From: Candidatus Peregrinibacteria bacterium CG10_big_fil_rev_8_21_14_0_10_42_8
Lineage (GTDB): Bacteria; Patescibacteriota; Gracilibacteria; Peribacterales; Peribacteraceae
Assembly: GCA_002772815.1 (NCBI GenBank)
Contig: PFDQ01000041.1
Location: 1 to 40,079, forward strand
Length of the DNA stretch: 40,079 nucleotides
Direction: 5' to 3'
The translations under genes were made by a program, and so were the position numbers. The notes beneath the pieces were generated by a model that saw nothing but the letters and a program-made list of their open reading frames with translations, did not search any database and was not told the origin of the DNA. Position 1 is the first letter of the stretch. Each line of letters opens with the position of its first letter. Below are positions 7,364 to 38,569 of the stretch, piece by piece.

Positions 7364-8695
7364 ATGCCACACCTGCTCCGCACCACTATTATGATCGTTT
7401 CTGCCATGATTGGCAGCGCTATTGTTCTCGCAGGGCTCATCATTGTTGTAGGAAACCTTACAACGTACGGCAGTATTCCTGCAGATTTCCTACCATCAGA
7501 ACACACCGTTGCCATCTTTCATAATACGAATCAAGAGACACTCTCAAAGTGGTCGAGCCACTTCCCTGCCCTATCAGAGGCTTCTTATGGCGAAGAAGCA
7601 ATTATTGGAATTATACAAAATTCAGATAGCACATTTAGCGCCGCAATTTTCCAAAAATCAGGCACGGGAACACTTGGACAATACAACCTACAATTCACAG
7701 ATTCAAAAATACAATCTCTCATTGGTAAGCAACAATTTCCAGTGAGTAAAAATCGCTCCTATAAACTACTCGCTGAACATCACGGTCTTCACTCATGGAT
7801 ATATATGAAAGTATCAGCGCTACCTGCGCCTCACGGCCTTCGTAATACTATCGAGCATGCACTCCTCTATAGAGATAGCAACTACATTGGTATTCAAGAA
7901 GAAATTGACCACATCCAAATATCACAAGAGACGGATCAAACCTTCATCAGTGCACCTCTTCAGGATGCCACATTGTCAGGTACAATCTTTAGAGCAAGTA
8001 TTGGAGAACCAACAGTAGTCTGGAAAAGCGTTCATCAACTCCTTTCAAAGGAGAATACCATCATCGTCGACGGCATCATTCAAGAAAAACTTACTGACTG
8101 GGGAAACGACATCAGTCTAGAACATGACATCATGTCACTACTGAGTGAACCATCCACGCTTCACATCACTGAATCTGGTGGAGTAATAAACATCCTTATT
8201 GAAGGCTCTGTGAAAAACACACAAGATCGTGACCGCATTTTAGATAGGATACATTCAAGCTACGCATCAATATTACCTACAAGCACGATTACTCGACGCG
8301 TTCTTGATAAACGATTTTCATCGGTAGATATCAGGCATGATGAATCCCAAATTACCAATTCCCAGTTCCGCAATGGAAACTGGACAATCAGAGAAACCCT
8401 TTTCCAGAAAAATACACACGGTATGATAACAGCAACTCATAAAAATAATTACCTTCTCAGTAATAATCTACACACGATAGAAGAAGCAATTACCTCAATA
8501 TCGACCACGTCACCACAATCCACAGCAGGTTTTATAGTAAACCAAGGCCTAATAGATCTCTCAAAAGTACAGGTTCTTCTTACTCCCATATTAGCACCGA
8601 AAGACCGCAAAACATCATTAGAAGACTTCGCAAATACGCTACAATGGGATACGATAATCAACGGATTAATCATGCAAAAAGATCTATTTTTCTAG
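7364..8695 (+). CDS. Hypothetical membrane-anchored protein
   Basis: 443-aa ORF with an N-terminal hydrophobic helix; no family motif recognised. Confidence 0.75.
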   Translation: MPHLLRTTIMIVSAMIGSAIVLAGLIIVVGNLTTYGSIPADFLPSEHTVAIFHNTNQETLSKWSSHFPALSEASYGEEAIIGIIQNSDSTFSAAIFQKSGTGTLGQYNLQFTDSKIQSLIGKQQFPVSKNRSYKLLAEHHGLHSWIYMKVSALPAPHGLRNTIEHALLYRDSNYIGIQEEIDHIQISQETDQTFISAPLQDATLSGTIFRASIGEPTVVWKSVHQLLSKENTIIVDGIIQEKLTDWGNDISLEHDIMSLLSEPSTLHITESGGVINILIEGSVKNTQDRDRILDRIHSSYASILPTSTITRRVLDKRFSSVDIRHDESQITNSQFRNGNWTIRETLFQKNTHGMITATHKNNYLLSNNLHTIEEAITSISTTSPQSTAGFIVNQGLIDLSKVQVLLTPILAPKDRKTSLEDFANTLQWDTIINGLIMQKDLFF

Positions 8696-9630: not shown

Positions 9631-10908
9631 ATGACAAGCGCACCAATCATCAAACGGCTCAAAGGAGGACGAGTAGAATGTACTGTAACGTATACAGAGA
9701 CAGAGGTCGCACCAGCAGAAGAAAAAGCTCTTCACGAGCTTTCTCGCAATATTGAAATTCAAGGATTCCGCAAAGGAAACGCTCCAATGGATAAAGTTCG
9801 TGAAAAAGTAAATAGCGACAAGCTCTTTCAGCAGACAATTCACCACCTACTACCAACAACATTTGAGAAGATTGTCGAAACAGAGAATATCAAGCCAATC
9901 ATCCATCCTCGTGTAGAGGCTGTGAGCAAGTCTCCTCTTACCGTAAAAATAATCTTCATTGAAAAGCCAGAGGTAAAGCTAAAGGGTATCGATAAAATCA
10001 AAATTGAAAAGAAAGAGCCAAAAGCAGAAGAAAAAGAGGTGCAAAAAATGATTGATTACATCTTATCAAAACACAGAACTGTTACACCGGTAGATCGCGT
10101 CGCACAGTCTGGTGACGAAATAACCATGGATTTCTGGGGTTCAGATAAAGAAGGTAAAGAAATTGATGGCATTCGTACAGAAGGACACGTTGTAGAAATT
10201 GGTTCAAAAGTACTCATCCCAGGCTTTGAAGACGCTCTTATTGGAATGAAAAAAGGAGAGGAGAAAGAGTTCACACTCACCTTCCCTGAGAAGTATCACG
10301 CTGAACAACTACAAAACCAGCCTGTAACATTCCATGTTACCGTGAAGGACATTGCAGAGGTAAAGATGCCAGAACTCACTGACGAGTTTGCACAGAAAGA
10401 ACTACAGTCAAAAGACGTTGCTGATTTTAAGAAGCAAATCGAAGATTCTATGCTCCAACAGGAAATAACCCTAGAGCATCAGCGTCGCGAGCGTATTTTG
10501 ATGGATGAAATCGCAAAGTGTACATCTGTCGATCTTTCACAAGAGCTTATTGATGAAGAGACAAAACAAATGGTTGGTGAATTCTCTCAGCAGTTACAAC
10601 AACAAGGAATGACAATCGAGTCATGGATGACTCATAGTGGAAAAACTGCTGACCAGCTTATGGATGAAATGAAAGAACAAAGTATTACTCGTCTTAAGCT
10701 TCGTCTTGGTATGCAAAAGCTTATCGAAGAGAAGAAAATGGATATCTCTGACGAGGAAATGGATATGGTTATTGAAGACTTCCTTGCACAAGCAACTCCT
10801 GATCAAAAAGTAGAGGTAGAGGCAGCATACAAAAAAGGAGCACAGGCGTACGAGCAGCTAAAGTGGCAAAAAAACGTAGAGAAGGCTCTTGCAGAAATGT
10901 TGAAGTAA
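9631..10908 (+). CDS. tig: Trigger factor
   Basis: GFRKGNAP ribosome-binding motif; FKBP domain (LIPGFEDALIGMKKGEEKEFTLTFPEKYHA); start set at ATG 9631, after the secF stop. Confidence 0.96.
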   Translation: MTSAPIIKRLKGGRVECTVTYTETEVAPAEEKALHELSRNIEIQGFRKGNAPMDKVREKVNSDKLFQQTIHHLLPTTFEKIVETENIKPIIHPRVEAVSKSPLTVKIIFIEKPEVKLKGIDKIKIEKKEPKAEEKEVQKMIDYILSKHRTVTPVDRVAQSGDEITMDFWGSDKEGKEIDGIRTEGHVVEIGSKVLIPGFEDALIGMKKGEEKEFTLTFPEKYHAEQLQNQPVTFHVTVKDIAEVKMPELTDEFAQKELQSKDVADFKKQIEDSMLQQEITLEHQRRERILMDEIAKCTSVDLSQELIDEETKQMVGEFSQQLQQQGMTIESWMTHSGKTADQLMDEMKEQSITRLKLRLGMQKLIEEKKMDISDEEMDMVIEDFLAQATPDQKVEVEAAYKKGAQAYEQLKWQKNVEKALAEMLK

Positions 10909-12819
10909 TTACGATTTCCACTCTACATGTACCCGACGATCCGGATTGGTATTCTGGAACATTTTACAATGACTGCGGTGTACCATTACCTCGCCTGATC
11001 GGTTGATGTTACCCACAATATTTTCCGCTCCATCCTGAGGAGTACAACACTTTGCATATCGTAAAGGCATACTAAAGTTTCCTTCAACCTGAATTTGAGA
11101 ATCCTTGCGTTGCATACGACCAACGCATTCATCATTCTTTTCTTTCTTAGGTGGCTTAATTCCAAAACCAGTATCAATATGCGATAACGCATCAAGACGT
11201 GAAAGTAGTGTGGAACCGCGCTCAGCGCCTTGTCCTATCTTCATTAATATATCTTCCCTTTGATGAAGATTCAGAGTCTCTCCGTCACATTTCCTTAGCA
11301 AAGATAAGTCTGTTGTGAGAGGTGGCAGATTTCTTTTGCGTAAATCCTCATTCACATATTCCCTCCCAAGAGCGATAAGCTGTGGACGCTCCTGTGCATA
11401 CAAATACCGACGAAGCTTACTTCGTGACGATGCCATACGAAGAAGTTGCATCCAATGAGTGGATGGCTGAGGAGTTGAGTGCTTCTGTACATCGACAACA
11501 TCGCCATTCTCAAGCTCGTAATCAAGCGAGACAATAGAGCCATTAACTTTTGCACTACGGAACGATAGACCCAAATCTGTATGAATCTGAAATGCAAAAT
11601 CGAGTGGTGTCGCATTTTCTGGAAGCTCCACAATATCACCACAAGGTGTCAAAACGAAAATGTGATCTGAAAACGACTGTTCCTCTTCATCATACACTGC
11701 TTCTTGCCCAATAAGAACAGACCGAAGCTGAAGCCTTTCCATGGCTCGTTCAGTTGCCCCATGCTCTTTATAACTCCAATGGGCAGCAACACCATACTGA
11801 GCTTTTCTATTCATTTTTTCTGTTCGTACCTGAATTTCAAGAAAACACCCCTCAGGCAAATCTGCAAAACCTGCAAGTGTTGTATGCAAACTCTGATAAC
11901 CATTCGGTTTTGGGAAAGCAATATAATCCTTAAACCTATTCGTAAGCGGTCGACCAAGCTGATGAAGCAAGCCAAGTACTTGGTAACATTCAGCCTCTGT
12001 ATTCACAACAACTCGTAATGAAAAAAGGTCATGAACATTATCAATATGTGTTAATGACTTTGTATTCATCTTCTGAAAAATACTAAAGAGTTGCTTCTCA
12101 CGACCATCAACGACTGCGTGAATATTATGAAATTTCAAAAAATCTTCGACAGCTTTTTGCGCCTTACTTAAAAAGTACGGATGTTCTATATGGACATGCT
12201 CCAACTGCTCGGCAATACGCCCTGCATCATCAGGGTACACAAAAGGGAATGTCGATGTTTCCAATTTCTGTTTTAAGGAATAAATACCAAGTCGTGCAGC
12301 AACTGGTGCAAATAACTGTAATACATCCTGACTCAATCGTTTTGCGTACTCAGTATTCATCGTACCTAAAAACTGTAAACATCGTGCGCGGTCACACAAC
12401 GTCACAAGCAAGATACGAATATCATCCGATACAGAGAGAAGCATAAGTCGAAGATCCTCAATAGACCGCCTCCTTCCTTCAAGGGTGACATGTGATAACA
12501 AGTGAATTCCACTCACAAGGCCACGTACCTTTGGACCAAATTGGTCTTCAAGTTCAAGAAGTGTCATAATCTTCATCTCAAGGACATGAGACAAGATCGT
12601 AGCAATAACAGTATCTTCATCTGGCTGAAATAGTGCAAGTTCTTCAAGAATACCAAGAACATGAGGAAGAACACTTTCCCCTGTCCAATGTTTCGTATCT
12701 CCATAGAAATCTTCAACAATAGCAAAAGCCTGCTCTATACGCTTCGTGTCATACGATGCTCCGGACTGAGCGAGTCGGTCTAAGACTGGCGCCAACTGAA
12801 GTGAGGCAACGGTGCTCAT
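10909..12819 (-). CDS. rel: Long RelA/SpoT homologue, (p)ppGpp synthetase with degenerate hydrolase motif and no ACT domain
   Basis: Synthetase motifs RFKDYIAFPKPNGYQSLHT, EIQVRT, AAHWSYKE; TGS (TPLDFAFQIHTDLG); Zn-finger region AKCCTP..HRSHC; the HD site reads ILSHVLEM. Confidence 0.92.
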   Translation of the reverse strand: MSTVASLQLAPVLDRLAQSGASYDTKRIEQAFAIVEDFYGDTKHWTGESVLPHVLGILEELALFQPDEDTVIATILSHVLEMKIMTLLELEDQFGPKVRGLVSGIHLLSHVTLEGRRRSIEDLRLMLLSVSDDIRILLVTLCDRARCLQFLGTMNTEYAKRLSQDVLQLFAPVAARLGIYSLKQKLETSTFPFVYPDDAGRIAEQLEHVHIEHPYFLSKAQKAVEDFLKFHNIHAVVDGREKQLFSIFQKMNTKSLTHIDNVHDLFSLRVVVNTEAECYQVLGLLHQLGRPLTNRFKDYIAFPKPNGYQSLHTTLAGFADLPEGCFLEIQVRTEKMNRKAQYGVAAHWSYKEHGATERAMERLQLRSVLIGQEAVYDEEEQSFSDHIFVLTPCGDIVELPENATPLDFAFQIHTDLGLSFRSAKVNGSIVSLDYELENGDVVDVQKHSTPQPSTHWMQLLRMASSRSKLRRYLYAQERPQLIALGREYVNEDLRKRNLPPLTTDLSLLRKCDGETLNLHQREDILMKIGQGAERGSTLLSRLDALSHIDTGFGIKPPKKEKNDECVGRMQRKDSQIQVEGNFSMPLRYAKCCTPQDGAENIVGNINRSGEVMVHRSHCKMFQNTNPDRRVHVEWKS

Positions 12820-12917: not shown

Positions 12918-13361
12918 TCAACGGTCTAAAACAAGAGTGACAGGACCATCATTTATAAGACTAACGTCCATGTATGCTCCAAACTCACCTGTTTTTACTG
13001 TTAAGACATCATACTCAGAAAGCTTTCGAACAAAGTATTCATACAGAATCATGGCATCAGAAGGCGCTTCTGCAGCACTGTAATCTGGTCTATTCCCCTT
13101 TTTGGTACTTCCTGCAAGAGTGAACTGTGATACAACCAAGATTTCACCCTTAATATCAACAATTGAATTGTCATTAATTTTCCCAGATTCCGAATCAAAT
13201 AAGCGTAATTTCGCAATTTTCTCTGCCAGCAGGGCAGCCTGCGCAGATGTATCTCCGCGTATAATGCCAATAAACAGCACGTATCCCTTGCCTATCTGTC
13301 CAATGATTTCTCCGTCGACTGCAACAGAAGCTTCAGTAACTTTTTGAAGGAGGACTTTCAT
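12918..13361 (-). CDS. dtd: D-aminoacyl-tRNA deacylase
   Basis: LLQKVTEASV, SQFTL, GNRPDYS, GEFGAYM, NDGPVT. Confidence 0.97.
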   Translation of the reverse strand: MKVLLQKVTEASVAVDGEIIGQIGKGYVLFIGIIRGDTSAQAALLAEKIAKLRLFDSESGKINDNSIVDIKGEILVVSQFTLAGSTKKGNRPDYSAAEAPSDAMILYEYFVRKLSEYDVLTVKTGEFGAYMDVSLINDGPVTLVLDR

Positions 13362-13388
13362 ACTGCAATTCTATACTAAATCATGCTA

Positions 13389-16300
13389 TTACTCATCTTT
13401 TCTCAATCCTATCATATTCTGTATTCTCGTTCTTTGTGCAGCTCCCTGTAAAGCAGTAACAGCATTCCAACCACGTATCCCAGGTATAACACCTCTTTCA
13501 GACCAACTTCTAATTTGAGCAGGCTGGCCAGTATTCATACTCTCACCAGGACTAGAGAAATAATTCAAATAATTCGAATCCCAAGACCGACCATTAGATC
13601 TCTCAATAAAAGAAATCCCTGGAGCTACTGGAATATGGAAATGATACAAAAGATCATCGAAATTAGCTGGCTTCATTTTAGGAAGAAGATCATCTGCATT
13701 CTCATGAAAGTCTTTCAAGAAACGTGAAATACCTTCGTGATCTTTACCATCAAAATATACACAAAGCTTATTAGAGCTTCTTACTGATGGGTTGGTTACC
13801 TCTGGTCCAATGGAATCTGTATAAATTTTTATTTGAGCATTCTGATTTTTCAACATGTTATCAAGAGAGCGAGCAACATGAGGTATTTCTGCAAGCTGAG
13901 GATTGATATAAAAAACAGTGTGAGGATGATTGGAATCGAGAGTATTCAGACCATTACCATAGTCTAACACTGCGCCACCATTATGAAATCCTCCATCTTT
14001 TCCATGTAAAGAAGGATCTTTTGTAAAATTCTTAAAAAAGGTTACCGCTTCTGCATCAGTCGAGTATGGCATCTTTTTTTCACCAAATTTTTTCTGATAA
14101 TCTGTTTCTATGGCAGTAACTCTCTTATTGTATGCATCTTTTTGGGAAAAAAGATCATGATATTCCATTCCTGAAAGATCTTTGCGTACTTCTGTATAAC
14201 TTCGATCTGAAAATTGATCAAGTAGTGAAAAATCTTGAAAAGATGTCTTAGCTTCAGGAATATTTTTTAGTGTAGGTCGTAAAGGTGGCGTTATCGGCGG
14301 GGCACCTTTTGGTATGGTAACACCAGAGGGATTATTTTTAGAGGGAGGTTTATGAGGTGGTGATGGAGATGGTAGTATTCCTACAATACCAGCCTCCATA
14401 AGCACACGACGCTGATCTTTGGAAATGCCTGCTTTATCTAATATCACTGCCTTACGATGCAATTGCTCCACTGTATAATTTCCTTTGCAAGCAGGTGTAC
14501 CGTCTTTACCCATTTCCCCCTCTCCTACAAGATGCGCTTCCTCAATAGCATTATGTTGATCTTTCGACAATGATGTACCAGGTTCCAACGTACCCTTCTG
14601 TTGTAAAATTTGCTCCACAGACAATGACTGTAACGATGTCTTAAAGACATCTTTCAGTTCTTGTAAACTTGCTACGTTCTTCAAAATTGCATCTGCATCA
14701 GCTTTCGAGAGTGCTCCCAGCATGGCTCGAGGGTCTACCGCCTGCATTAATGCCATCGGATCAATATCCGCTCCTCTACAAAGCTCATGAAGATTAGTAC
14801 GCTTCAGTGTTGCACTCTGTACAACCTGTGCAATGCCATGCAGATCTTCCGCTGGAAGGCCGCGTAATGCGCGCAAGGAAGCACTAGATAAGTCTGCATA
14901 TCCAAGACCCATAAACAGTGCATTACTTTTGAGGTTATCTAAAAATTCTCCTCCTGTAATAGCAGTATCGAGAGTCGTACCAATAATGACATCTGCACTG
15001 CCTTCTAGTGTTGCACCTGTGAGTCTTGTTCCTATATGTGCTGCATCATCAAAAGAATTCACCAACCTTAGTCCACCTTTTTTGGTAGCTATTTTAAACA
15101 ATTCGCGCGTACCACCAGCTTCGGCAAGCATACCAGACCGGCTGAGCTGATACGCAGCACGACCAGCAGTAAGGTATCGTGCAGTACCCATCGTTAGTGT
15201 ATTTACTGTCATATCTTTCCCGTACACACTTGCAGCATCACCCAAAGAATCAAAACCTTGTTGATTCATGGCAGCATTGGTAACAGTCATTGCTGCTCCA
15301 CCAGCAAGGGAACCTGCGACAAGACCAAGTCCACCTGTTGCCACTCCTACAGCAATACCCGCTGCAACCATTGCCGCAATTTTTGCCCCCGCCCCTACGT
15401 AACTCCACGTCTTATCGCCAACGTCATACCCATATCCCTGAATATCAGCCAATAATTGCCATGATTCAATCTGCTGCTTTGAAAGACCTTTACCACCAAC
15501 AGAAGTATTAATTTCTTCTAGTGTTGCTGCACCCGTTAAATAGTCTCCATCCAGAAACGTTTCAAACTTCTCCATAGCTACTTCTAGTTGCGGCATCAGT
15601 TTTTCATTGATCTCTTCTCCAACATTTGGATAACCTTCTCCTCCCATAAACATGTGTTCAAGATTACGTATAATAGTATATTGTTGGATAATTGCCTGAA
15701 GAGAATGTGGCGTGCTCTTTATGGTAGATTCCATCTCTTGAACAGCTGGATGTTCATGAAGCCCTGGACTGTTTTCCAATTGTTGTAATACATAATCACG
15801 TTTCTCATCTATATACTCTTTCAGTGGGTTCTGTTTTTGCAATGTCTGCTCCATGTATTGCAAAGTAAGTTCCTCAAACCCCAATGCATCCTTTGCCATA
15901 CTCACGGCAAAATCAATATTGGTAAGATTACTATCAATCGGGCTTCCTCTCCCCGAGAATAGCTTCGCAAGATCCATAGCATGTCGATAGAAATCTGGTG
16001 CCTTTGTAGGATCCTGAACAAGAAGTGTTTTCTCTTGGGCAATTTTACCCGAAAGAGATTGCTGTAATGTATTAGTAAGAACTCCAAATGTTTCTGCAAG
16101 GCCTTTGCTTTGCCAATCATTCATATCAATCATAGCAAGAACTTGCTTCGTCCAATCTACTGCTTCTTCCAGGGTCATATGTGTCATTGTTTTCTGCGCC
16201 TGTTCAACAGCCATTGTTGCACTACGCAATTCGACATTTTCCATTTCCTCATCGGCACTACTCACAAGCTCTGTTAACCGACTGCGGCGATCAACGTACA

Positions 16301-16709
16301 ACAATCGTAACTTTTCATACTCCCGACTCTCTGGTGACATCTGCTCTAGTACTATTGCCATTGCGTCTAAATTACTACTTACCGCACTCGCTGCGTTTTG
16401 AAGTATACGCTTTTCTTTCGCTGTTTCATCGGCACTATCTCCGAACCACTCATCACTATCTTTCATTTCTGTAAGAATATTCTCTAAGCACGACACATAC
16501 CCCAAAGATGTACCAACACTACTAAACCTATTTTCGATATTGTCTACTGAAGTATTTGCTGCACGCTTTTCATTATTAATGTACGAAGAATACACCTCTC
16601 GCAATTTTGTGGATTCTACACTTGCCTCAGAAGGAGGTTTTTTTTCTCCTGATTTATCGACATTAATTGCTTCAGGACTACCCTGTGATGACAAATGCTC
16701 TAATCCCAT
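13389..16709 (-). CDS. Large orphan protein: coiled coil, Gly/Ala hydrophobic hairpin, Pro-rich linker, C-terminal HopA1-like domain
   Basis: 1106-aa ORF; AAMVAAGIAVGVATGGLGLVAGSLAGGAAM hydrophobic segment; PSPSPPHKPP..PPITPP linker; C-terminal FYINP..IKIY..RSSNKLCVYFD..FHIPVAPGISFIE..GRSW. Confidence 0.8.
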   Translation of the reverse strand: MGLEHLSSQGSPEAINVDKSGEKKPPSEASVESTKLREVYSSYINNEKRAANTSVDNIENRFSSVGTSLGYVSCLENILTEMKDSDEWFGDSADETAKEKRILQNAASAVSSNLDAMAIVLEQMSPESREYEKLRLLYVDRRSRLTELVSSADEEMENVELRSATMAVEQAQKTMTHMTLEEAVDWTKQVLAMIDMNDWQSKGLAETFGVLTNTLQQSLSGKIAQEKTLLVQDPTKAPDFYRHAMDLAKLFSGRGSPIDSNLTNIDFAVSMAKDALGFEELTLQYMEQTLQKQNPLKEYIDEKRDYVLQQLENSPGLHEHPAVQEMESTIKSTPHSLQAIIQQYTIIRNLEHMFMGGEGYPNVGEEINEKLMPQLEVAMEKFETFLDGDYLTGAATLEEINTSVGGKGLSKQQIESWQLLADIQGYGYDVGDKTWSYVGAGAKIAAMVAAGIAVGVATGGLGLVAGSLAGGAAMTVTNAAMNQQGFDSLGDAASVYGKDMTVNTLTMGTARYLTAGRAAYQLSRSGMLAEAGGTRELFKIATKKGGLRLVNSFDDAAHIGTRLTGATLEGSADVIIGTTLDTAITGGEFLDNLKSNALFMGLGYADLSSASLRALRGLPAEDLHGIAQVVQSATLKRTNLHELCRGADIDPMALMQAVDPRAMLGALSKADADAILKNVASLQELKDVFKTSLQSLSVEQILQQKGTLEPGTSLSKDQHNAIEEAHLVGEGEMGKDGTPACKGNYTVEQLHRKAVILDKAGISKDQRRVLMEAGIVGILPSPSPPHKPPSKNNPSGVTIPKGAPPITPPLRPTLKNIPEAKTSFQDFSLLDQFSDRSYTEVRKDLSGMEYHDLFSQKDAYNKRVTAIETDYQKKFGEKKMPYSTDAEAVTFFKNFTKDPSLHGKDGGFHNGGAVLDYGNGLNTLDSNHPHTVFYINPQLAEIPHVARSLDNMLKNQNAQIKIYTDSIGPEVTNPSVRSSNKLCVYFDGKDHEGISRFLKDFHENADDLLPKMKPANFDDLLYHFHIPVAPGISFIERSNGRSWDSNYLNYFSSPGESMNTGQPAQIRSWSERGVIPGIRGWNAVTALQGAAQRTRIQNMIGLRKDE

Positions 16710-16808
16710 ATTTTGTGTTTATTTTGATATATCACATCATGATAGCATATTTCCTTCACATTGTTAATGTGCAAATTAAGAACAACTACCAAAATATAAG
16801 CCATTTTC

Positions 16809-16836
16809 TTGACCTGAGCATGTATATGAATAGAAT
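16809..16836 (+). promoter_or_regulatory. Promoter of rplJL
   Basis: TTGACC(16809-14)-16 nt-TAGAAT(16831-36), directly before the leader. Confidence 0.6.
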
Positions 16837-16841
16837 TGCAC

Positions 16842-16981
16842 ACGACCGAAGACCGAGAGCACAGGGCTGATGGCCTTAAATTAGTCTCTCCGAGGTATAC
16901 AGCATCGTCCACTCGGCTTACGCTTGGTGAATCGTGTCGTGTACCTTGCTGGTCTCCCGGTCGTCCAGGAGACTTTTTTTT
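16842..16981 (+). promoter_or_regulatory. Ribosomal protein L10 leader with attenuator-type terminator
   Basis: CCGAAGACCG..GGCCTTAAA..CTCCGAGGTA core typical of L10 leaders, directly 5' of rplJ; terminator GTCTCC(16952-57)..GGAGAC(16968-73) followed by T8. Confidence 0.85.
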
Positions 16982-17007
16982 AACCCAAATCATTCCAGAC
17001 CACTATC

Positions 17008-17634
17008 ATGGCACTTACGAAAGATCAAAAAATCGACCAAGTAGCAAAGCTCACAGCTCAACTAAAAGATGCACAATCTGTCATGTTCAGTAACTATATT
17101 GGAATGAACGTTGCAGATGTTTCAGAATTCCGAAACAAGCTACGCGAAGGAAATTCTGAAATGAAAGTAGCAAAAAAGACGCTTATCCAGCGTGCATGTA
17201 AAGAGGCTGGTTACCCAGATATTTCACCAGACGACCTTGAAGGACCAGTTGCATGTATCTTCAGCTTTGAAGATCCACTATCTGGAGCACAAATTGCTTT
17301 CAAGTTTGCAAAGAAGCACAAGCAAGTCGTTCTTGTCGGAGGTGTATATGACGGAAAGATTCTTTCAAAAGAAGAAGCATTGGAGCTCGCAAAGATGCCA
17401 AGCCGAGACCAACTTCTTGCGAAGTTTGTTTCTATGCTACAAGCACCGCTCAACAGCTTTGCAAGCATCTGTACTTCTCCACTTGGAGGATTCGCACGTG
17501 CTCTTGACCAGATGGCTGAAAAAGGAGGATTTGTAAAAGATGAACCACAACCTGAAGCTGCACCTGCAGCGGAAGAAGTTAGTACTACTCCTGACGCTCC
17601 TGAAGAGGAAAAGAAGGAAGAGTCAGAATCCTAA
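17008..17634 (+). CDS. rplJ: 50S ribosomal protein L10 with an acidic C-terminal tail
   Basis: KVAKKTL, LEGPVACIFSFEDP, LAKMPSRDQLLA; tail EPQPEAAPAAEE... Confidence 0.97.
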   Translation: MALTKDQKIDQVAKLTAQLKDAQSVMFSNYIGMNVADVSEFRNKLREGNSEMKVAKKTLIQRACKEAGYPDISPDDLEGPVACIFSFEDPLSGAQIAFKFAKKHKQVVLVGGVYDGKILSKEEALELAKMPSRDQLLAKFVSMLQAPLNSFASICTSPLGGFARALDQMAEKGGFVKDEPQPEAAPAAEEVSTTPDAPEEEKKEESES

Positions 17635-18129: not shown

Positions 18130-18177
18130 ATGCATAGAGTTTCGTCTACAATAGGCCTAACCCTCCCCTCTTCTATT

Positions 18178-19545
18178 ATGCGAAAATTCATTCTCTGTAT
18201 GATGTTTGTGTTTCCAACGCATGTATTTGCTGCGATAACAACACCAGCTGACATACTGCTAAATACCGCTTTTACTGGCAGTCCACGTAACTTTAAAATA
18301 CAGGCACATAATCAAAAAAATGATGTGTACTACTCGACGTGGATTCATGGTGCTGAAGAAGGAAAAGGTGAATGGTATAAAGTAAAAATGGATGTCGTAA
18401 CACACATTCAAAATGGTGCGCAAAGTACAAAAATGAACACTCGATTAATTGTATATCAAGGAATGCTATTCGTAGCAATTATGAATGACGATCCTCAGTG
18501 GACATCTGTACCACTCGGAAGTATGGAGTTATCACATGGCTTCTCTGTACTTCAACTGCTTTCAAAAGCAGGAATTGATGCTGTAAATCTCAATAAAGGA
18601 ATAGAAGATGCACTAAGTCATACAGAAAGACTTACTGTCACTCATGAGGGATACGCAACAGGCATTGCCTATTCACTAAAAACTCCGAAGATTGAAAATA
18701 ATACGCATATAAAAGTAAATACCGATAAGGCAAACCAATTTGGTTACTTAAAAATTTATACAACAAATGGGAATTTTGTTGCAGAAGGAACAGTGCAGCC
18801 ACAGGCAAGTGCTGTATATATTGATGTTCCTACATCAACAGTGTCTTTTGATGAATTTAAAATGCAGCTCGGGCAATTTCGTGTACAAACAGTTGTAGAA
18901 AAACCAGCAGAAAAAATGGTAACTATCCAAAATAAGAGAGCAGTAACATCAAGAACAAACCGAATCATCAATGCAGATCGAAGCAGAGCAGCTCCAAAAA
19001 ATATTCCAACAACATGTGTAGAAACAGGAGATATTAATCGTATCGAACTTGAGCGAAAGGGCTTCTGCCCAGCAGAACGATTTCATAAACGCATTATTCA
19101 TGGAAGCAATGAGCCAGGGAGAGATGGGCGAAAAGTATGGCAGGAACGTGTCAGTGCAGAAAAACTCATTGAAGGTTACAATGATGTATCTGTAGAAATT
19201 GAAGAGTTCGCACGACGCAAGAATCTCCATAAAGTAAAAGCGTCAATTAGCCGTAAAAATCTAGAAGCATCTGGCTCAGATGCCATTAACACATGGATCA
19301 CAAATGAAATTATTCCATTTTTTGTACCAACAAATAGAAGCTGGGTGGTGGAATCTATATTAATAGAAGATGAATATGGACATAATGGCGTAGTACTTCA
19401 AAAGAGCGCTACAACAGCTACAGGAAAGCGGAAAAATTTCGTTATTTTTCTTCTAGAAGAAAATAAAGGAGATCAGCCAGTAATGACAGATATTTACCTT
19501 AATACACGCCTGAGCGACCTTCAGGCGGAAGGTCTAATCGATTGA
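18178..19545 (+). CDS. Secreted hypothetical protein
   Basis: Signal peptide MRKFILCMMFVFPTHVFA from ATG 18178; 455 aa; no family recognised. Confidence 0.75.
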   Translation: MRKFILCMMFVFPTHVFAAITTPADILLNTAFTGSPRNFKIQAHNQKNDVYYSTWIHGAEEGKGEWYKVKMDVVTHIQNGAQSTKMNTRLIVYQGMLFVAIMNDDPQWTSVPLGSMELSHGFSVLQLLSKAGIDAVNLNKGIEDALSHTERLTVTHEGYATGIAYSLKTPKIENNTHIKVNTDKANQFGYLKIYTTNGNFVAEGTVQPQASAVYIDVPTSTVSFDEFKMQLGQFRVQTVVEKPAEKMVTIQNKRAVTSRTNRIINADRSRAAPKNIPTTCVETGDINRIELERKGFCPAERFHKRIIHGSNEPGRDGRKVWQERVSAEKLIEGYNDVSVEIEEFARRKNLHKVKASISRKNLEASGSDAINTWITNEIIPFFVPTNRSWVVESILIEDEYGHNGVVLQKSATTATGKRKNFVIFLLEENKGDQPVMTDIYLNTRLSDLQAEGLID

Positions 19546-25621: not shown

Positions 25622-26230
25622 ATGAGCCTTACACCACATCAGCGTACTGTGCTGAATTACATCGGAGAGTTCCAACGAAAGAGAGGGTACTCCCCATCTC
25701 TGAGCGATCTCGCTCTTGCCTTTGGTGTTAGTAGTAAAAATGCTGTCGCAAAAGTCGTAAATGTTTTAGTACGTGAAGCACATCTTGAAAAAGATCCAAA
25801 AGGTCGTATTAAAATTATGGAAAACGGAAACGAAACAGAAAACGTCGCACAACCGATGATGCTTCCTCTCTTTGGTCCAATCTCTGCAGGGTTCGCAGCA
25901 CCAGTAGAAGAGCAAGCAGAAGAAATGATCACACTTGATAACTATCTTATTGGTGACAAATCCTCCACCTTCCTCTTGCGCGTCAAAGGAGACAGTATGA
26001 TGGATGCAGGTATCTATGAAGGAGATATTGTCGTTGTTAATAGAAAACGAACACCAAAGCTCAACGACATCGTCGTCGGCGTACTTGATGGAGAGTTCAC
26101 CTTAAAGCGCCTCAAGCGCGATAAAGGGAAATACTATCTGCAAGCAGAGAATGCTTCATATCCTGATATGTACGCTGTAGAAGAACTACAAACAGCAGGT
26201 GTCATAGAAGGAATAATGAGAAAGTACTAA
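25622..26230 (+). CDS. lexA: LexA repressor (winged HTH plus S24 autopeptidase with UmuD-like C-domain)
   Basis: LTPHQ..GYSPSLSDLA HTH; Ala-Gly cleavage site (SAGF); VKGDSM catalytic Ser; FTLKRL catalytic Lys. Confidence 0.92.
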   Translation: MSLTPHQRTVLNYIGEFQRKRGYSPSLSDLALAFGVSSKNAVAKVVNVLVREAHLEKDPKGRIKIMENGNETENVAQPMMLPLFGPISAGFAAPVEEQAEEMITLDNYLIGDKSSTFLLRVKGDSMMDAGIYEGDIVVVNRKRTPKLNDIVVGVLDGEFTLKRLKRDKGKYYLQAENASYPDMYAVEELQTAGVIEGIMRKY

Positions 26231-26264
26231 CACGTATTTTACGAACGTTTTACAACGCTTTTTA

Positions 26265-27491
26265 ATGATCGCGCATATTGATGCGGATGCTTTTTTCGCC
26301 TCTGCCCTCCAACGCAAACGGCCAGACCTAAAAGGCAAACCCCTGCTTGCTCTTGGTATGGGAGGAGGATGCGTTATCGCTGCCAGCTACGAAGCAAAAG
26401 CATGTGGCGTAAAGACTGGCATGCGTCTTGGTGATGCGAGACGCCTCTGTCCAAAAGCGATCGCACTGCCATCAGACTTCGACGAGGCACTCCTCGCCTC
26501 TCGTCAGATAGAACAAATTCTCCAGAACCGTTGTCCAATCATAGAGCGGTACTCTGTTGATGAATGGTTCCTTGATGTCCGCGCACTTCCAGGAGGTATA
26601 CCCGAAGATCTGCTTGAATGGGCTACAGAACTAAAAAATACTATTAGTCGTTCTGTCGGCCTTACTGTTTCTATTGGCGTAGGGCCTAGTAAGTTACTTG
26701 CAAAGATGTCGAGCGAATACCAAAAGCCTTTTGGGGCAACCGTCGTGTCCCCCTCCCCCCTCGGGGGAGGGGCTAGGGGTGGGGGCATTTCCATAGAAGA
26801 CTTTTTACAAGACCGAGTAGCCTCTGCAATCCCTGGCATTGGAACAAGACGCGCAGTGCATGCTGAAGCACAGGGATGGAACACAGCATGGGATATCGCC
26901 AATGCAGACAAAGAAAAAATTCAACAACTCTTCGGAAGACCAGGGCTCGATATGCAACGAGAGTTACTCGGAGAAGCTCTTACAAAAGTAGAAACCGAAA
27001 ATGCTCCACCAAAATCGATCTCTCGTACACGAAGCTTCGCACCGGTCAAAAACCGGGACATGGTGTACGCACATCTTTTGCATCATTTGACCTACACAAT
27101 GCTAAAGATGAGACGTGAAGGACTTGCATGTACGTCGGTAAGTGTGTGGCTACGCAATGGCGAGTACACCTTTGACCAAAAGCTATACAAACTCCCCTGT
27201 CCCACAGACACGGAAGAACAAGTGCTTCCCTACATGCACCGTTGTTTTGAAAAATTATTTGAATATGGAACAGCGTACACCCAAGTTGGACTTGGCCTTT
27301 ATGGTCTCAACCCAAAAGGTGGTACGCAGTATTCCTTATTTGAGAATATCAAGAAGCTAGACGAGGCAGAAGACATCCAAAAAGCACTCGATATTCTGCA
27401 TAAACGCTACGGCAGAGAAGCACTCAAGCGTGGTAGTGCAATGGCTATCTCCAGTGCTAAAAAACCACATCTAGGAGTAGTAAATGAATAA
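26265..27491 (+). CDS. Y-family translesion DNA polymerase (DinB/UmuC-like)
   Basis: HIDADAFFAS, ASYEAK, YSVDE, PKSISRTRSF, clamp-binding-like QYSLF. Confidence 0.93.
   Translation: MIAHIDADAFFASALQRKRPDLKGKPLLALGMGGGCVIAASYEAKACGVKTGMRLGDARRLCPKAIALPSDFDEALLASRQIEQILQNRCPIIERYSVDEWFLDVRALPGGIPEDLLEWATELKNTISRSVGLTVSIGVGPSKLLAKMSSEYQKPFGATVVSPSPLGGGARGGGISIEDFLQDRVASAIPGIGTRRAVHAEAQGWNTAWDIANADKEKIQQLFGRPGLDMQRELLGEALTKVETENAPPKSISRTRSFAPVKNRDMVYAHLLHHLTYTMLKMRREGLACTSVSVWLRNGEYTFDQKLYKLPCPTDTEEQVLPYMHRCFEKLFEYGTAYTQVGLGLYGLNPKGGTQYSLFENIKKLDEAEDIQKALDILHKRYGREALKRGSAMAISSAKKPHLGVVNE
26748..26786 (+). repeat. In-frame GC-rich palindromic element inside the polymerase gene
   Basis: CCCCTCCCCC-CTC-GGGGGAGGGG perfect 10-bp stem plus CTAGGGGTGGGGG; encodes SPSPLGGGARGGG. 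Confidence 0.75.
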
Positions 27492-34969: not shown

Positions 34970-35138
34970 AGGAGTAATATTGTTACAAACAAAAGAGGTT
35001 TGAGCCGCGCCAGCTAGGGCAAGAGCGCCAAAGCGAGCGAGAACAGAGTTATTATAAGAAAAACACGATTTAGTGCAAGAAAATGGATCATATTTACAGG
35101 TGGACAGGCGTTCACCGCATGATACAATGCCCCTTACT

Positions 35139-36293
35139 ATGATAGAAACACTTCTCGCACTCACACTAATCGGAATTTGCTTTATCGGCTTCATGCAATG
35201 GAAATCTCAAACTGATGGAGATCCTCGCTTGAAAGCAGAAGTTGAACGAAAAAACCAAGAGATTGGCGAGCTAAAGAACCAACTCATTGAATCAAAATCA
35301 GAAAAAGATAAGCTTTCAGGCCAAGGAAAAGAACTTTATGACAGATATAAAAGCTTAGAATCAGACCTCAAAGTCGTCATGAAAGAACGAGACTCCTCTA
35401 CTGCGCGAAATACGAAATACGAAACGCAAGAAGAGCAAAAGCAAATGAAGCACGAAGAAATGGTGTCAAAACTTGAAGAAGCAAAAGTAACCCTCGAAGA
35501 CGAACGCATGCGTATTCGCAGAGAAGATGAAGAACGTCAACAAAAAGCACTTGAAGAACGAGACCGCATGTGGGCAGAGCATGAGATTACGGTAAACGCT
35601 CTCCTTGGAGACCTCGTGAAGAAGCCTCAGTACAGCTTCACAGGATACGACAATACCAACCTTCCAGAAGGTTTTGATGGAAGTCTAAAGCCAGACTTTA
35701 TGATTGGATTCCTTGAACAATATGTCATCTTCGACTCAAAAGTATCGAAGTCACAAGATCTTCAAAATTACATTTCAGATGCAGTGAAGAAAACTGCAAA
35801 AAAAGTAAAAGGAAATGATGCAATCTACTCCACTATCTTCCTTGTTGTGCCAACAGATGCTGTCGCCACATTAAAGAAGCTCTCATTCTACGAAGAAGGT
35901 TTCACATTCTACGTTGTCTCTCCAGAAAGCTTGGAACCGATTCTTGCTTCTCTAAAGAGAATCGAGACATACGAATTTGCACAAGAGATGGACCCTCAGG
36001 AACGAGAAAACATTATTGATATGATCGCTCAATTTGATTTCCATATCTCTACCAGAAACGCAGTAGACTTCCACTTGCTAGAGCATGGTATCGAAACTCT
36101 CAACAAACTACGGTCAACAAATTCTGAATTTACAAAAGAAGTAATGATCAAAAGACAAAAGATTCGAAACGTGAACCTCAACACTGCAGATGTAAAACAA
36201 ATGACATCTGATCCTGAAGTTGTTCATCAAAAACTTATTGAGCTTACAAATCCGAAAGCAAAGTTAGCTGCGCAGGACAGAAAAATTGGATAA
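35139..36293 (+). CDS. rmuC: RmuC-like protein (TM, coiled coil, PD-(D/E)xK nuclease-like domain)
   Basis: N-terminal TM, long coiled coil, LKPDFMI..VIFDSK, FLVVP, VVSPESL; start chosen after TGnTACAAT (35120-28). Confidence 0.75.
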   Translation: MIETLLALTLIGICFIGFMQWKSQTDGDPRLKAEVERKNQEIGELKNQLIESKSEKDKLSGQGKELYDRYKSLESDLKVVMKERDSSTARNTKYETQEEQKQMKHEEMVSKLEEAKVTLEDERMRIRREDEERQQKALEERDRMWAEHEITVNALLGDLVKKPQYSFTGYDNTNLPEGFDGSLKPDFMIGFLEQYVIFDSKVSKSQDLQNYISDAVKKTAKKVKGNDAIYSTIFLVVPTDAVATLKKLSFYEEGFTFYVVSPESLEPILASLKRIETYEFAQEMDPQERENIIDMIAQFDFHISTRNAVDFHLLEHGIETLNKLRSTNSEFTKEVMIKRQKIRNVNLNTADVKQMTSDPEVVHQKLIELTNPKAKLAAQDRKIG

Positions 36294-36304
36294 GATAGCT
36301 CCCC

Positions 36305-38569
36305 ATGTCTACAAAGCAAGAGATCATTACGGCGAACTTAAATGACCCGCAAAAAGCCGCTGTTCTCCATGGAGATGGGCCACTACTCATTCTTGCAGGT
36401 GCAGGTAGCGGAAAGACAAAAGCACTCACCCATCGTATTGCAAAGCTTATCGCTGAGGGTGTTCCACCTTGGCAGATCTTGTCTGTGACGTTTACAAACA
36501 AAGCAGCTCTAGAGATGAAAGAGCGTATTGAGAAACTCCTAGAAGTAACCGAAGGAAGTGGTCTCAATAACCAATGGGAAACAACCACCGGAACAATGCC
36601 AACGATGGGAACGTTCCACAGTATCTGCGCACGTATCTTACGGCGAGATATTGATAAGATTGGCCGAGACCGTAGCTACGTTATTTACGACACAGACGAC
36701 CAGCAACGCCTCATGAAAATGATCCTTAAAGAAATGGGATTGGAAGATGAAGACCTCAAGCCAAAAGCAGCACTTGGCTACATCAGTCGTTTTAAAAGCG
36801 AAGCACTTACACCAAAGCAAGCCGAGTCTGAGGCTTCAACTGCTCGCATGCAGCACGTTGTAAGCGCATATAAGAAATATCAAAAAGCACTCTTTGAGGC
36901 AAATGCACTAGACTTCGATGATATCCTACTCGAAACCGTTCGGCTCTTTACAGAAGTTCCAGCAGTACTCGAAAAATACCAGAACACATGGAAGTACTTA
37001 CACGTTGATGAGTATCAAGATACAAACCACGTGCAGTATCTTTTCATTACATTGCTTGCAAAGAAATATGGAAACCTTTGTGTTATTGGAGACCCAGACC
37101 AATCTATCTATGCATTCCGTGGAGCAGATATTCGAAATATTCTTGAATTTGAAAAAGAGTACAAAGAAGCAGCACACATCAAGCTTGAACAAAACTACCG
37201 CTCTACCCAAGTCATCCTTGATGCTGCTGACTGTATTATTTCAGTAAACCCTGGACGACCAGAAAAGAAAATGTGGTCAGAGAAAAAAGAAGGCCCAAAA
37301 GTCATTATCCAAGAAGTGGCAGATGAAAAAAAAGAGGCTATGGAAGCAATACGTGCAGTGGAAAACATCCAAGGGAAAGGTGTGAAGCTGAGCGACCAAG
37401 TAATCCTCTACCGTACCAATGCGCAGTCGCGCCTATTTGAAGAAGCATGCCTAAGGCGAGCAATCCCCTACCGTATTGTTGGTGGAATGAAATTCTACGC
37501 ACGACGCGAAGTAAAAGACATGCTTGGGTACTTGCACGCAATCTTAAACCCAAACGATAGCGTCGCACTGCTTCGCATTATTAATGTTCCATCACGAAAG
37601 ATTGGACTTACCACTCTTGGAAGATTGCAGGCATACAGTACGGACAATAACATCTCTTTATGGGATGCTATCCAGCAAATCGATTTTATTCCAGACATTA
37701 ATGCACCTACAAAGGAACGCATTGCAAAATTTGCAGACCTCATTTTGAAGTACCAAGAGAAAGCAAAGACAGAAGTCGTGTCAGAGCTCATGGGGCACCT
37801 TATGCATGCGATAGACATCGAGCATTGGTTACGAGATGGCAGCGAAGAAGGAGAAGCCAGATGGGAAAACGTACAGGAACTTAAAAGCGTCATGCACAAA
37901 TATGACGGACTAGAGCCAATATCGAGCCTTACAAGCTTCCTCGAAGAAGTCGCACTTGTTTCTGAAGTTGATAAACTCCAAGACGACAGTGACGCACTAA
38001 CCCTTATGACCCTTCATCTCTGCAAAGGACTGGAATTTAAACACGTTGTTATTGCAGGCTGTGAAGAAGGAATCTTCCCACATGCAAACTGCGCATTCGA
38101 CAGAGAGCAGTTAGAAGAAGAGCGTCGCATTATGTACGTTGGCATGACACGAGCACGAACATATCTACAACTGATGCATGCAAATTCTCGTATGCTCTGG
38201 GGTCAGACACAGGCAAATGTTCCTAGTCGGTTCCTGGAAGACATCCCTGAAAGCTGCGTAGAAAGGCGAACAGATAATGTTTTAAGTGCATTCGCACATG
38301 CTAGCCAAAGAGGTGCCGACGCCATTGGTACAGGTACCCATCAAAGCAGGCACAGTGATAACCTCAAAGTGGAATTCAACCAAGATATCGATTACTCAAA
38401 TGATGGCTTTAACCAAGAGGCAGAACTGACAGTTGGGTGCCGTGTATCACATAAAACATTTGGCAACGGAACAGTGAAATCCCTCCGTGGAGACCTTGTC
38501 GAAATCTCTTTTGATAATGGACAACTAAAGACACTTGCGATGAGCATCGCACCACTTCGTCTTATCTAG
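36305..38569 (+). CDS. pcrA: ATP-dependent DNA helicase PcrA/UvrD
   Basis: AGAGSGKT, TFTNKAA, VDEYQDTN, GDPDQSIYAFRGA, QNYRS, KGLEF, EERRIMYVGMTRA, C-terminal Tudor-like VSHKTFGNG. Confidence 0.96.
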   Translation: MSTKQEIITANLNDPQKAAVLHGDGPLLILAGAGSGKTKALTHRIAKLIAEGVPPWQILSVTFTNKAALEMKERIEKLLEVTEGSGLNNQWETTTGTMPTMGTFHSICARILRRDIDKIGRDRSYVIYDTDDQQRLMKMILKEMGLEDEDLKPKAALGYISRFKSEALTPKQAESEASTARMQHVVSAYKKYQKALFEANALDFDDILLETVRLFTEVPAVLEKYQNTWKYLHVDEYQDTNHVQYLFITLLAKKYGNLCVIGDPDQSIYAFRGADIRNILEFEKEYKEAAHIKLEQNYRSTQVILDAADCIISVNPGRPEKKMWSEKKEGPKVIIQEVADEKKEAMEAIRAVENIQGKGVKLSDQVILYRTNAQSRLFEEACLRRAIPYRIVGGMKFYARREVKDMLGYLHAILNPNDSVALLRIINVPSRKIGLTTLGRLQAYSTDNNISLWDAIQQIDFIPDINAPTKERIAKFADLILKYQEKAKTEVVSELMGHLMHAIDIEHWLRDGSEEGEARWENVQELKSVMHKYDGLEPISSLTSFLEEVALVSEVDKLQDDSDALTLMTLHLCKGLEFKHVVIAGCEEGIFPHANCAFDREQLEEERRIMYVGMTRARTYLQLMHANSRMLWGQTQANVPSRFLEDIPESCVERRTDNVLSAFAHASQRGADAIGTGTHQSRHSDNLKVEFNQDIDYSNDGFNQEAELTVGCRVSHKTFGNGTVKSLRGDLVEISFDNGQLKTLAMSIAPLRLI

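Follow-up and report, generated by a model that had tools for sequence, protein, structure and literature searches.

What does a protein of 1106 amino acids, inserted among housekeeping genes, do for a bacterium of the Candidate Phyla Radiation (CPR)? The question is raised by a locus of Candidatus Peregrinibacteria bacterium CG10_big_fil_rev_8_21_14_0_10_42_8 (contig PFDQ01000041.1, positions 1 to 40,079; this whole stretch of 40,079 nt is called hereafter the window). An earlier note, made by inspection of the sequence, had described there an open reading frame (ORF) for an effector-like protein ending in a HopA1-like lyase-type domain. The ORF was found where that note had placed it. Its start codon is sound, since the homologues can be aligned from residue 1, and the gene is present in one copy in the 1.01-Mb genome (98% complete).

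13389..16709 (stop included), minus strand: whole ORF, modular effector-like protein of 1106 amino acids

The results lead us to consider that the gene probably encodes a horizontally acquired, modular effector of Peribacteria, built according to the logic of polymorphic toxins, in which a domain of the HopA1/LanY superfamily (the tip) occupies an exchangeable position behind a conserved carrier (residues 1-700).

Fold and family of the tip

13392..14252, minus strand: tip with HopA1/LanY fold, putative phosphoserine/phosphothreonine (pSer/pThr) lyase, residues 820-1106 (AlphaFold2 model, structure searches and hhalign)

The tip was modelled with AlphaFold2 (AF2) from an alignment of 17 sequences (A2), giving a predicted local distance difference test score (pLDDT) of 91.4 and a predicted template modelling score of 0.91. 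In a Foldseek comparison with the PDB, the 16 best matches all belonged to the lyase superfamily (HopA1, the phosphothreonine lyases VirA/SpvC/OspF, the CuvL lyase domain, and LxmY from the lexapeptide dehydratase LxmKY), with just one match at E<=1e-3 and TM-scores of 0.3-0.45. Alignment with VIA-align gave a Z of 10.7 for HopA1 4rsx (199 of 257 residues aligned, root-mean-square deviation 4.8; 10.7 and 10.2 for the 4rsx/4rsw pair), 10.5 for LxmY (9dk3_B), 8.9 for CuvL, 6.1-7.5 for other class III synthetases and 5.4-6.2 for SpvC/OspF/VirA, the first unrelated chain being at 5.0. A search of 48,161 PDB chains, performed independently of Foldseek, found six chains with Z>=5, all from the pSer/pThr-lyase superfamily (LxmY 9.9, HopA1 9.9, CuvL 8.7, SalKC 7.3, ThurKC 7.1 and SpvC 5.9), and the next chain scored 4.8. 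The HopA1/lyase fold foreseen in the earlier note is thus borne out by both AlphaFold and Foldseek. The conserved C-terminal R-x-x-x-M-P-G-L is no sorting tail, as it forms the last strand of the fold (strand 280-284 of the model, with alignments reaching 286-287).

When residues 820-1106 were searched with HMMER in 1.84 billion representative proteins, only 18 clusters reached E<=1e-3; one of these (a TPR/CHAT protein) is evidently spurious. Relatives of the tip share 27-40% identity, and are short proteins or the C-terminus of proteins of 848-1632 amino acids. For three of 16 relatives, scores for PF17914, the Pfam HopA1 family, were sub-threshold (20.4, 18.9 and 13.6 bits, for a gathering cut-off of 22.7), and the ESM Atlas gave HopA1-named clusters as a lead (score 0.89). 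The A2 profile search for homologous proteins returned a single family member, and a metagenome scan with a smaller alignment, A4, two loci. Among 401 Patescibacteria genomes searched with PF17914, six had a match, five of them above the cut-off. These six proteins (alignment A5) were matched to the tip family A2 by hhalign over 101 columns (94.7%, E 6.1e-8). Taken together, predicted fold and profile homology place the tip firmly, if distantly, within the HopA1/LanY branch of the pSer/pThr-lyase superfamily.

LxmY is structurally as close to the tip as HopA1 (Z 9.9-10.5), which would suit a dehydratase subunit of the LanY type for a lanthipeptide- or thioamitide-like peptide that is made by ribosomes and modified post-translationally (RiPP). 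Such a role is very improbable. No APH/LanK-type kinase (PF01636) was found in the 98%-complete genome, with a control positive in 13 of 14 genomes. The gene stands among dtd, relA/spoT and rplJL, no RiPP-type Pfam family was present among the 29 window ORFs, and the window contained no precursor peptide gene for a LanY-type pathway. Moreover, an 800-aa carrier precedes the domain in the same chain, and homologues have proteases in its place.

Carrier, junction and exchange of tips

Fourteen homologues of 839-1866 amino acids were collected, the one named source being Candidatus Peribacteraceae. Residues ~1-700/800 are common to all of them, at 41-52% identity (33% in one), and the tip is present in a single one (P0002). 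The tips of the others are calpain-type cysteine proteases or, in several cases, of unknown family. Calpain-type tips scored 38.1 bits in locus L024 and 24.2 in L023 (cut-off 23.8), two more being slightly below, and in L026 the calpain-type domain is carried by a separate downstream ORF. The suspicion of the earlier note that homologues of residues 1-780 would differ at their C-termini was therefore correct.

The exchange could be followed at the nucleotide level in three related loci from Peribacteria metagenome-assembled genomes (L003-L005). Their flanking genes share 95-99% identity in protein and 85-94% in nucleotides. Within the big gene, the 5' part is 73-81% identical in nucleotides and the 3' part has no detectable similarity, so that a cassette has been replaced between conserved flanks. 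Between L003 and L005, nucleotide similarity stops just past a junction module and a run of prolines. The parts of the window protein upstream of the tip are as follows.

15435..16622, minus strand: all-helical, repeat-like N-terminal domain, residues 30-425 (AF2 block, pLDDT mostly 66-94)
14883..15431, minus strand: most conserved part of the carrier, residues 427-609, rich in Gly, Ala and Thr, with many invariant Gly (alignments A1/A3)
15270..15401, minus strand: hydrophobic Gly/Ala helical hairpin, residues 437-480 (Kyte-Doolittle scan)
14610..14882, minus strand: helical end of the conserved carrier, residues 610-700 (homologue alignment and AF2)
14385..14576, minus strand: junction (adaptor) module of ~70 amino acids, residues ~712-775 (A3 profile positions ~700-890)
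14265..14375, minus strand: Pro-rich linker at the swap boundary, residues 779-815 (composition)

This layout agrees with the one drawn earlier by eye. The long helical N-terminus corresponds to the AF2 domain of residues 30-425, the Gly/Ala hairpin expected at about 15285-15395 was measured at 15270-15401, and the Pro-rich hinge expected at about 14270-14378 lies at 14265-14375, residues 800-845 being 15% Pro. Kyte-Doolittle windows of 19 residues exceeding 1.2 were confined to residues 435-481, the sole hydrophobic segment of the protein, in the region of which AF2 places two helices (430-458 and 462-481). As no hydrophobic stretch is present at the N-terminus, there is no classical signal peptide, again as first read. 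The invariant columns of the A1/A3 alignments are concentrated in residues 427-609.

The model of residues 1-780 (pLDDT 66.8) had no Foldseek match at E<=1e-3, and VIA-align returned only designed or generic helical repeats, with Z<=11.6, a level that is uninformative for helical proteins. No new fold is claimed for the carrier, because residues 427-609 are modelled too poorly. Sequence leads for this part were weak: DUF637 on residues 466-598 (E 0.4; seen in two of 15 family proteins at E 0.2-0.4), WXG100 in two of 15 carrier-family proteins (E 0.013) and, for residues 420-700 in the ESM Atlas, unnamed clusters together with one PT-TG-bearing cluster (score 0.87). Comparison of the window protein and P0024 with PDB sequences by phmmer gave chance matches only. 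Matches of the whole protein to XPC-binding (E 0.009) and to a radical-SAM family (E 0.41) in Pfam/NCBIfam were likewise taken as chance.

The junction module has the consensus A-H...G...L..K...L...G(F/I)(S/T)...R.L.E.G(I/V).G, and does not match any Pfam pre-toxin domain. Among 301 genomes sampled in the class, it was also detected in large ORFs (800-2500 amino acids) of 21 further genomes, which have no clear full carrier, one of them having a partial carrier match. In some class genomes (e.g. G271, G117, G140 and G286), the module matches were interrupted only by TGA, up to 12 codons, which fits the same module in lineages where TGA is recoded. A local hidden Markov model (HMM) of the junction matched P0023, P0027 (twice), L014, L015, L017-L019 and L023; its columns include non-homologous segments of P0005, P0006, P0009 and P0012, and matches to those four were excluded. 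In P0023 and in P0027, which has two copies, the module is associated with other carrier types.

The full carrier was found in six of the 301 class genomes, plus one partial match in a TGA-recoded genome, and the tip in the source genome only. Carriers of two other types were also found to bear the same tip. One giant ORF (L006:1-6867, P0032; more than 2288 amino acids), from a metagenome contig of 57 kb, combines a different hairpin-bearing carrier with two tandem HopA1-like domains. By eye, P0032 also has a HExxH motif and several junction-like stretches with poly-Pro, which the junction HMM did not match. As far as sequence comparison can tell, the architecture thus comprises carrier, junction and a replaceable warhead, in some cases in series.

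Cassette replacement between conserved flanks is typical of interbacterial competition toxins, so that the protein could work in the classical toxin-immunity manner, being aimed at rival bacteria rather than at the host of a symbiont. In two of three loci with calpain-type tips, homologous ORFs (167-178 amino acids, 39% identity) stand directly after the tip (L023:6274-6777 and L026:2565-3101). They are candidate inhibitor or immunity proteins, and the one in L026 has a weak HEAT-repeat score. In addition, the swapped cassette of L003 contains, right after its unknown-family tip, an ORF for a PP2C-like phosphatase (10820-11797; PP2C_2 23.5 bits, cut-off 24), possibly an immunity or partner protein that has to do with phospho-signalling. 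In contrast, no immunity-type ORF follows the HopA1-type tip in either of the two loci that can be judged. In the window, dtd begins 27 nt after the stop, in line with the earlier reading; in L006 the next ORFs are ribosomal or housekeeping, by eye only, no scan having been made. None of the known trafficking domains of such systems was found either. A competition toxin of this kind is conceivable, but we think it doubtful. At the other end of the big gene, homologous small ORFs that overlap its start in L024 (1358-1744) and L025 (1488-1814), 29% identical and coiled-coil-like, may encode a chaperone or adaptor; they have no counterpart in the window.

Insertion and genomic setting

Composition sets the tip apart, as the earlier note had seen from a few lines of sequence. 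With a GC content of 0.364, positions 13392-14252 are the minimum among all 861-bp windows of the 40-kb stretch (mean 0.425, standard deviation 0.022; 0.25% of windows at or below this value). GC at third codon positions (GC3) is 0.226 in the tip versus 0.32 for residues 1-700. The 5' third of the gene (15501-16709) is likewise low in GC (0.404).

On the same strand, dtd (Tyr_Deacylase, 181 bits; Pfam) follows the gene and is itself followed by relA/spoT, and rplJ-rplL lie upstream on the opposite strand. In three out of three genomes of the same genus, dtd and rplJ are direct neighbours, separated by 232-246 nt. Therefore the gene, with some 90 nt upstream of it, constitutes an insertion of ~3.4 kb.

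13362..16800, no strand: segment missing between dtd and rplJ of 3/3 congeners, insertion of ~3.4 kb (congener comparison)
16739..16767, minus strand: promoter-like TTAACA-17-TATCAT with TG, ~30 nt 5' of the ATG, inside the insert (consensus match only)

The congeners match the window again at 13351-13367 to the left and at ~16839-16844 to the right; the right-hand limit is approximate, as the alignment places it at ~16839-16844 and inspection by eye near 16800. Promoter-like sites were no more frequent than in shuffled sequences (13 versus 10.8 +/- 3.7). Homologues of the gene share no synteny with the genes that neighbour it in the window. Horizontal acquisition is one part of the joint claim that was rated as probable at the outset.

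Another conceivable role is that of a resident membrane protein, anchored by its hairpin so that both its ends face the cytoplasm, whose tip acts on phosphoproteins or peptides of the producer itself. The lack of a signal peptide and the single hydrophobic hairpin would fit, as would the place of the gene, which precedes dtd and relA/spoT by 27 nt in the same orientation without an intervening terminator-like site on that strand, and the presence in the genome of one weak Pkinase-like ORF (29.3 bits, below cut-off). However, the gene is missing at this site in all three congeners and the carrier from 295 of the 301 class genomes, and tips have been swapped among close relatives that share 95-99% protein identity in the flanking genes. 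A housekeeping role is hard to square with such a patchy distribution, with tip exchange and with the deviant GC3 of the tip, and we consider a resident protein quite improbable. Patchy distribution, cassette exchange and deviant composition rather argue that its role is accessory and related to conflict.

Being long and helical, with one hydrophobic segment, an enzymatic end at its C-terminus and a cleanly inserted gene, the protein may also evoke a remnant of a phage or mobile element, for instance a tape-measure-like protein with an enzymatic end. This is scarcely credible. None of six family proteins matched a PHROG, and tblastn with the tip gave one match at E=9 in 50,697 phage records and none in 72,556 plasmids. 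No phage or transposase genes are found nearby.

Other features of the window were recorded. Rfam gave nothing at E<=0.01 on 13300-17100. An element of ~125 nt located 5' of rplJ (16845-16990, plus strand) is ~90% identical in four same-genus genomes, and better conserved than the neighbouring coding sequence (70-76%). Its folding yields a long structure of several stems, after which come a hairpin and a U-run; Rfam had no match for it at E<=0.01, and compensatory change is seen in only 3 of 48 pairs. The element may represent a CPR attenuator of the L10-leader type that has so far gone unrecorded. Four ORFs of 406-482 amino acids (7364-8695, 18130-19545, 35073-36293 and 38562-40010) have no Pfam family at E<=1e-5; the second, directly after rplL, has by eye a hydrophobic segment at its start. 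At 25622-27491, a LexA-like repressor (Peptidase_S24 plus LexA DNA-binding domain) adjoins a Y-family polymerase (IMS), an SOS-type pair in a 1-Mb CPR genome.

Active site, delivery and meaning

The motifs picked out in the earlier note, FYINP (13899-13913), NAQIK, NKLCVYFD, HIPVAPGISFIE and GRSW (13581-13592), are all present and fall in the best conserved columns of the tip family. In the form R before x-Y-x-N, K, R-x-D, Y and G-I-G..E, the HopA1 motif given there agrees with the six A5 proteins, five of which are above the Pfam HopA1 cut-off and which share an invariant R-x-Y-x-N, K, (R)-x-D, Y and G. By hhalign, Y934, N936, K961, Y985 and G1031 of the window protein pair with the invariant Y, N, K, Y and G of A5.

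13827..13829, minus strand: codon of K961 (domain K142), putative catalytic base (invariant in 17/17; aligned to the invariant Lys of A5)
13755..13757, minus strand: codon of Y985 (domain Y166) (kept in 16/17; aligned to the invariant Tyr of A5)

The spacing R-31/32-K-17/18-Y, with an Arg at Y-7, corresponds to that of CaoY R187, K219, R229 and Y236. For the lyase family, CaoY R187 was equated with SpvC K104 (carbonyl-activating) and CaoY R229 with SpvC R148 (phosphate-binding). The passages of PMC9486802 on CaoY equate K219 with SpvC K136 and Y236 with SpvC Y158, and report that K219A abolished phosphate elimination, that R187A nearly did so and that R229Q was impaired. K961 is taken as the equivalent of CaoY K219 and SpvC K136 by this spacing pattern, not by structural superposition.

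Several results weigh against an effector of this kind, or against its proposed chemistry, and they concern first the active site. The Arg of R-x-Y-x-N, equivalent to CaoY R187, is replaced by V932 (T8 V3 S3 C1 R1 A1 in the family column), and the invariant Asp of A5 by N980 (family N10 D6 G1), so that the two deviations remarked on in the earlier note, N for D and no Arg before FY, were confirmed by alignment. At the column of CaoY R229 the window protein has S978, preceded directly by R977 (R in 8/17). The window copy alone deviates at three further positions, Q938 (R/H/K in 16/17), H1025 (R/K in 15/17) and I1100 (P in 16/17). At the level of detection, PF17914 misses the window protein even at E<=10, and also in a six-frame search of the genome, and the A2 profile had no match among PDB sequences. 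The Gly-rich core of the carrier, residues 427-609, is modelled with a pLDDT of just 30-50. As to delivery, Pfam/NCBIfam revealed no LXG/WXG, PAAR, TPS or other trafficking domain in the window protein and, since it has one hairpin and no signal peptide, lacking any N-terminal hydrophobic segment, both its ends would by default be located in the cytoplasm of the producer. The weak WXG100 and PT-TG hints led us to consider a type VII secretion route, which was rejected for the source genome (one FtsK-type ATPase, no WXG100). A type IV secretion route was rejected as well, the only candidate being a lone VirB4/TraC-like ATPase among housekeeping genes, unlinked to the effector-like gene.

That ATPase (G000:C42:511-2745, L027; P-loop_TraG 109 bits) is encoded near argS and cell-wall genes, with no other recognisable gene of a type IV secretion system on its 14-kb contig. 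The source genome has three ATPases of the type II secretion/type IV pilus type above cut-off. The parts of PMC4736985 that deal with Peribacteria genomes describe type II secretion and type IV pili, and find variation between strains to be concentrated in large exported proteins.

The same substitutions underlie an alternative for the tip alone, in which the modular effector stands, and its HopA1-fold domain is no lyase; the domain would bind a phosphoprotein or kinase or serve as a decoy for one, or would perform another chemistry. The Arg equivalent to CaoY R187 is missing in 16 of 17 sequences, the Asp is changed to Asn, and the three private deviations of the window copy point the same way. 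To our knowledge, lyase activity has never been shown for HopA1. In its passages on HopA1, PMC9486802 names EDS1 and kinases as its targets, with no lyase assay of HopA1 reported there. On the other hand, K961 in 17/17 and Y985 in 16/17 occupy the positions of the catalytic base pair, and three family-invariant basic residues located elsewhere in the tip, R842, R1037 and R1095, could stand in for the missing Arg. Together with basic residues at positions 938 and 1025, they may, judging from the alignment, substitute for it. We regard the non-lyase alternative as doubtful. Because R187A nearly abolishes elimination in CaoY, the lyase chemistry is less certain than the fold; activity of the window tip appears possible, falling a little short of probable on the evidence of model and alignment.

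For the modular effector that we favour, the following mechanism may be proposed. The conserved carrier would bear its exchangeable C-terminal domain via the junction of ~70 amino acids and the Pro linker. Its Gly/Ala core would insert into a membrane, carrying or exposing the tip to another cell, which could be the host of the bacterium or a competitor. There, the tip would strip phosphate from phospho-Ser/Thr by beta-elimination, with K961 as the base together with Y985, and so would irreversibly disable phospho-signalling proteins. This chemistry would run with other invariant basic residues (R1037 and R1095, positions 938 and 1025), or in an altered form. Membrane insertion by the Gly/Ala region, export and a host phosphoprotein as target had been suggested in the earlier note, and we infer them likewise. 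In a Patescibacteria protein (L029, G610:C8, ORF 1-2028), a bona fide HopA1 domain (63.1 bits) is joined to an FHA domain (26.3 bits). FHA domains are readers of phospho-Thr, so that a reader is coupled here to a putative phospho-Thr lyase, and this fusion in a CPR bacterium fits a phosphoprotein substrate for the HopA1 domain in the phylum.

A bolder version would have carrier, junction and linker form a class-specific CPR platform that inserts by its Gly/Ala core, without a secretion machine, and shuffles warheads into host cells, the tip being an active lyase that lacks the canonical Arg and erases host Ser/Thr phosphorylation. Taken as a whole, this version is unlikely.

Among known systems, the closest in kind is HopA1, the type III effector of Pseudomonas syringae (4rsx, 4rsw; PF17914), the crystal structure of which was reportedly determined by Park et al. 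in 2015. The likeness lies in the fold of the whole tip, in profile homology to PF17914 members, and in the fact that both are effector-type domains without a partner kinase. However, structure-aligned identity is only 8-10%, the window tip is below Pfam detection and the Arg of R-x-Y-x-N is missing from it. Furthermore, HopA1 is a small substrate of a type III secretion system, whereas the window domain is a tip on an 800-aa carrier in a CPR organism. No component of a type III system turned up in any of the scans, although no search aimed at it was made. With the LanY lyases of class V lanthipeptides and thioamitides (LxmY in 9dk1-3, CaoY), the tip shares the fold (Z 9.9-10.5) and the positions of the catalytic Lys and Tyr; it differs in that its genome has no LanK/APH partner or RiPP context, and in that the R187 equivalent is missing and the R229 equivalent apparently shifted by one residue. 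More distant than HopA1 and LanY are the class III synthetases (CuvL Z 8.7-8.9, others 6.1-7.5) and SpvC/OspF/VirA (Z 5.4-6.2), which share the superfamily fold and the proposed beta-elimination of phosphate.

The likeness to polymorphic and multi-effector toxins (LXG/Rhs/CdiA, MARTX-like) is one of design: a conserved N-terminal part with variable C-terminal domains, cassette replacement between flanks, a junction at the swap point, giants with multiple tips, and candidate immunity ORFs after some tips. In contrast to these toxins, the window carrier shows no detectable kinship with known trafficking domains, its junction matches no Pfam pre-toxin domain and its HopA1-type tip has no immunity gene behind it. 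A full-text literature search, with subscription journals outside its coverage, found no paper pairing "polymorphic toxin" with "phosphothreonine lyase" or "HopA1", and a search combining HopA1 with CPR terms gave no mention of HopA1 among the matches listed.

The gene thus looks like a new effector-delivery design, as judged from alignments and models. Little is known of the ways in which CPR/Patescibacteria act on the cells that sustain them, and the gene is a concrete candidate for such an effector. With the junction module as a search handle, its tips can be catalogued across the class. The HopA1/LanY/OspF superfamily is extended to a tip fused to a large carrier, in an uncultured lineage and without a partner kinase, and a sub-family lacking the Arg thought essential in LanY bears on how lyase chemistry can be built. 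If the bolder version is true, ultra-small, host-dependent bacteria would shuffle enzymatic warheads (a pSer/pThr lyase, calpain-like proteases and domains of unknown family) into the cells on which they live.

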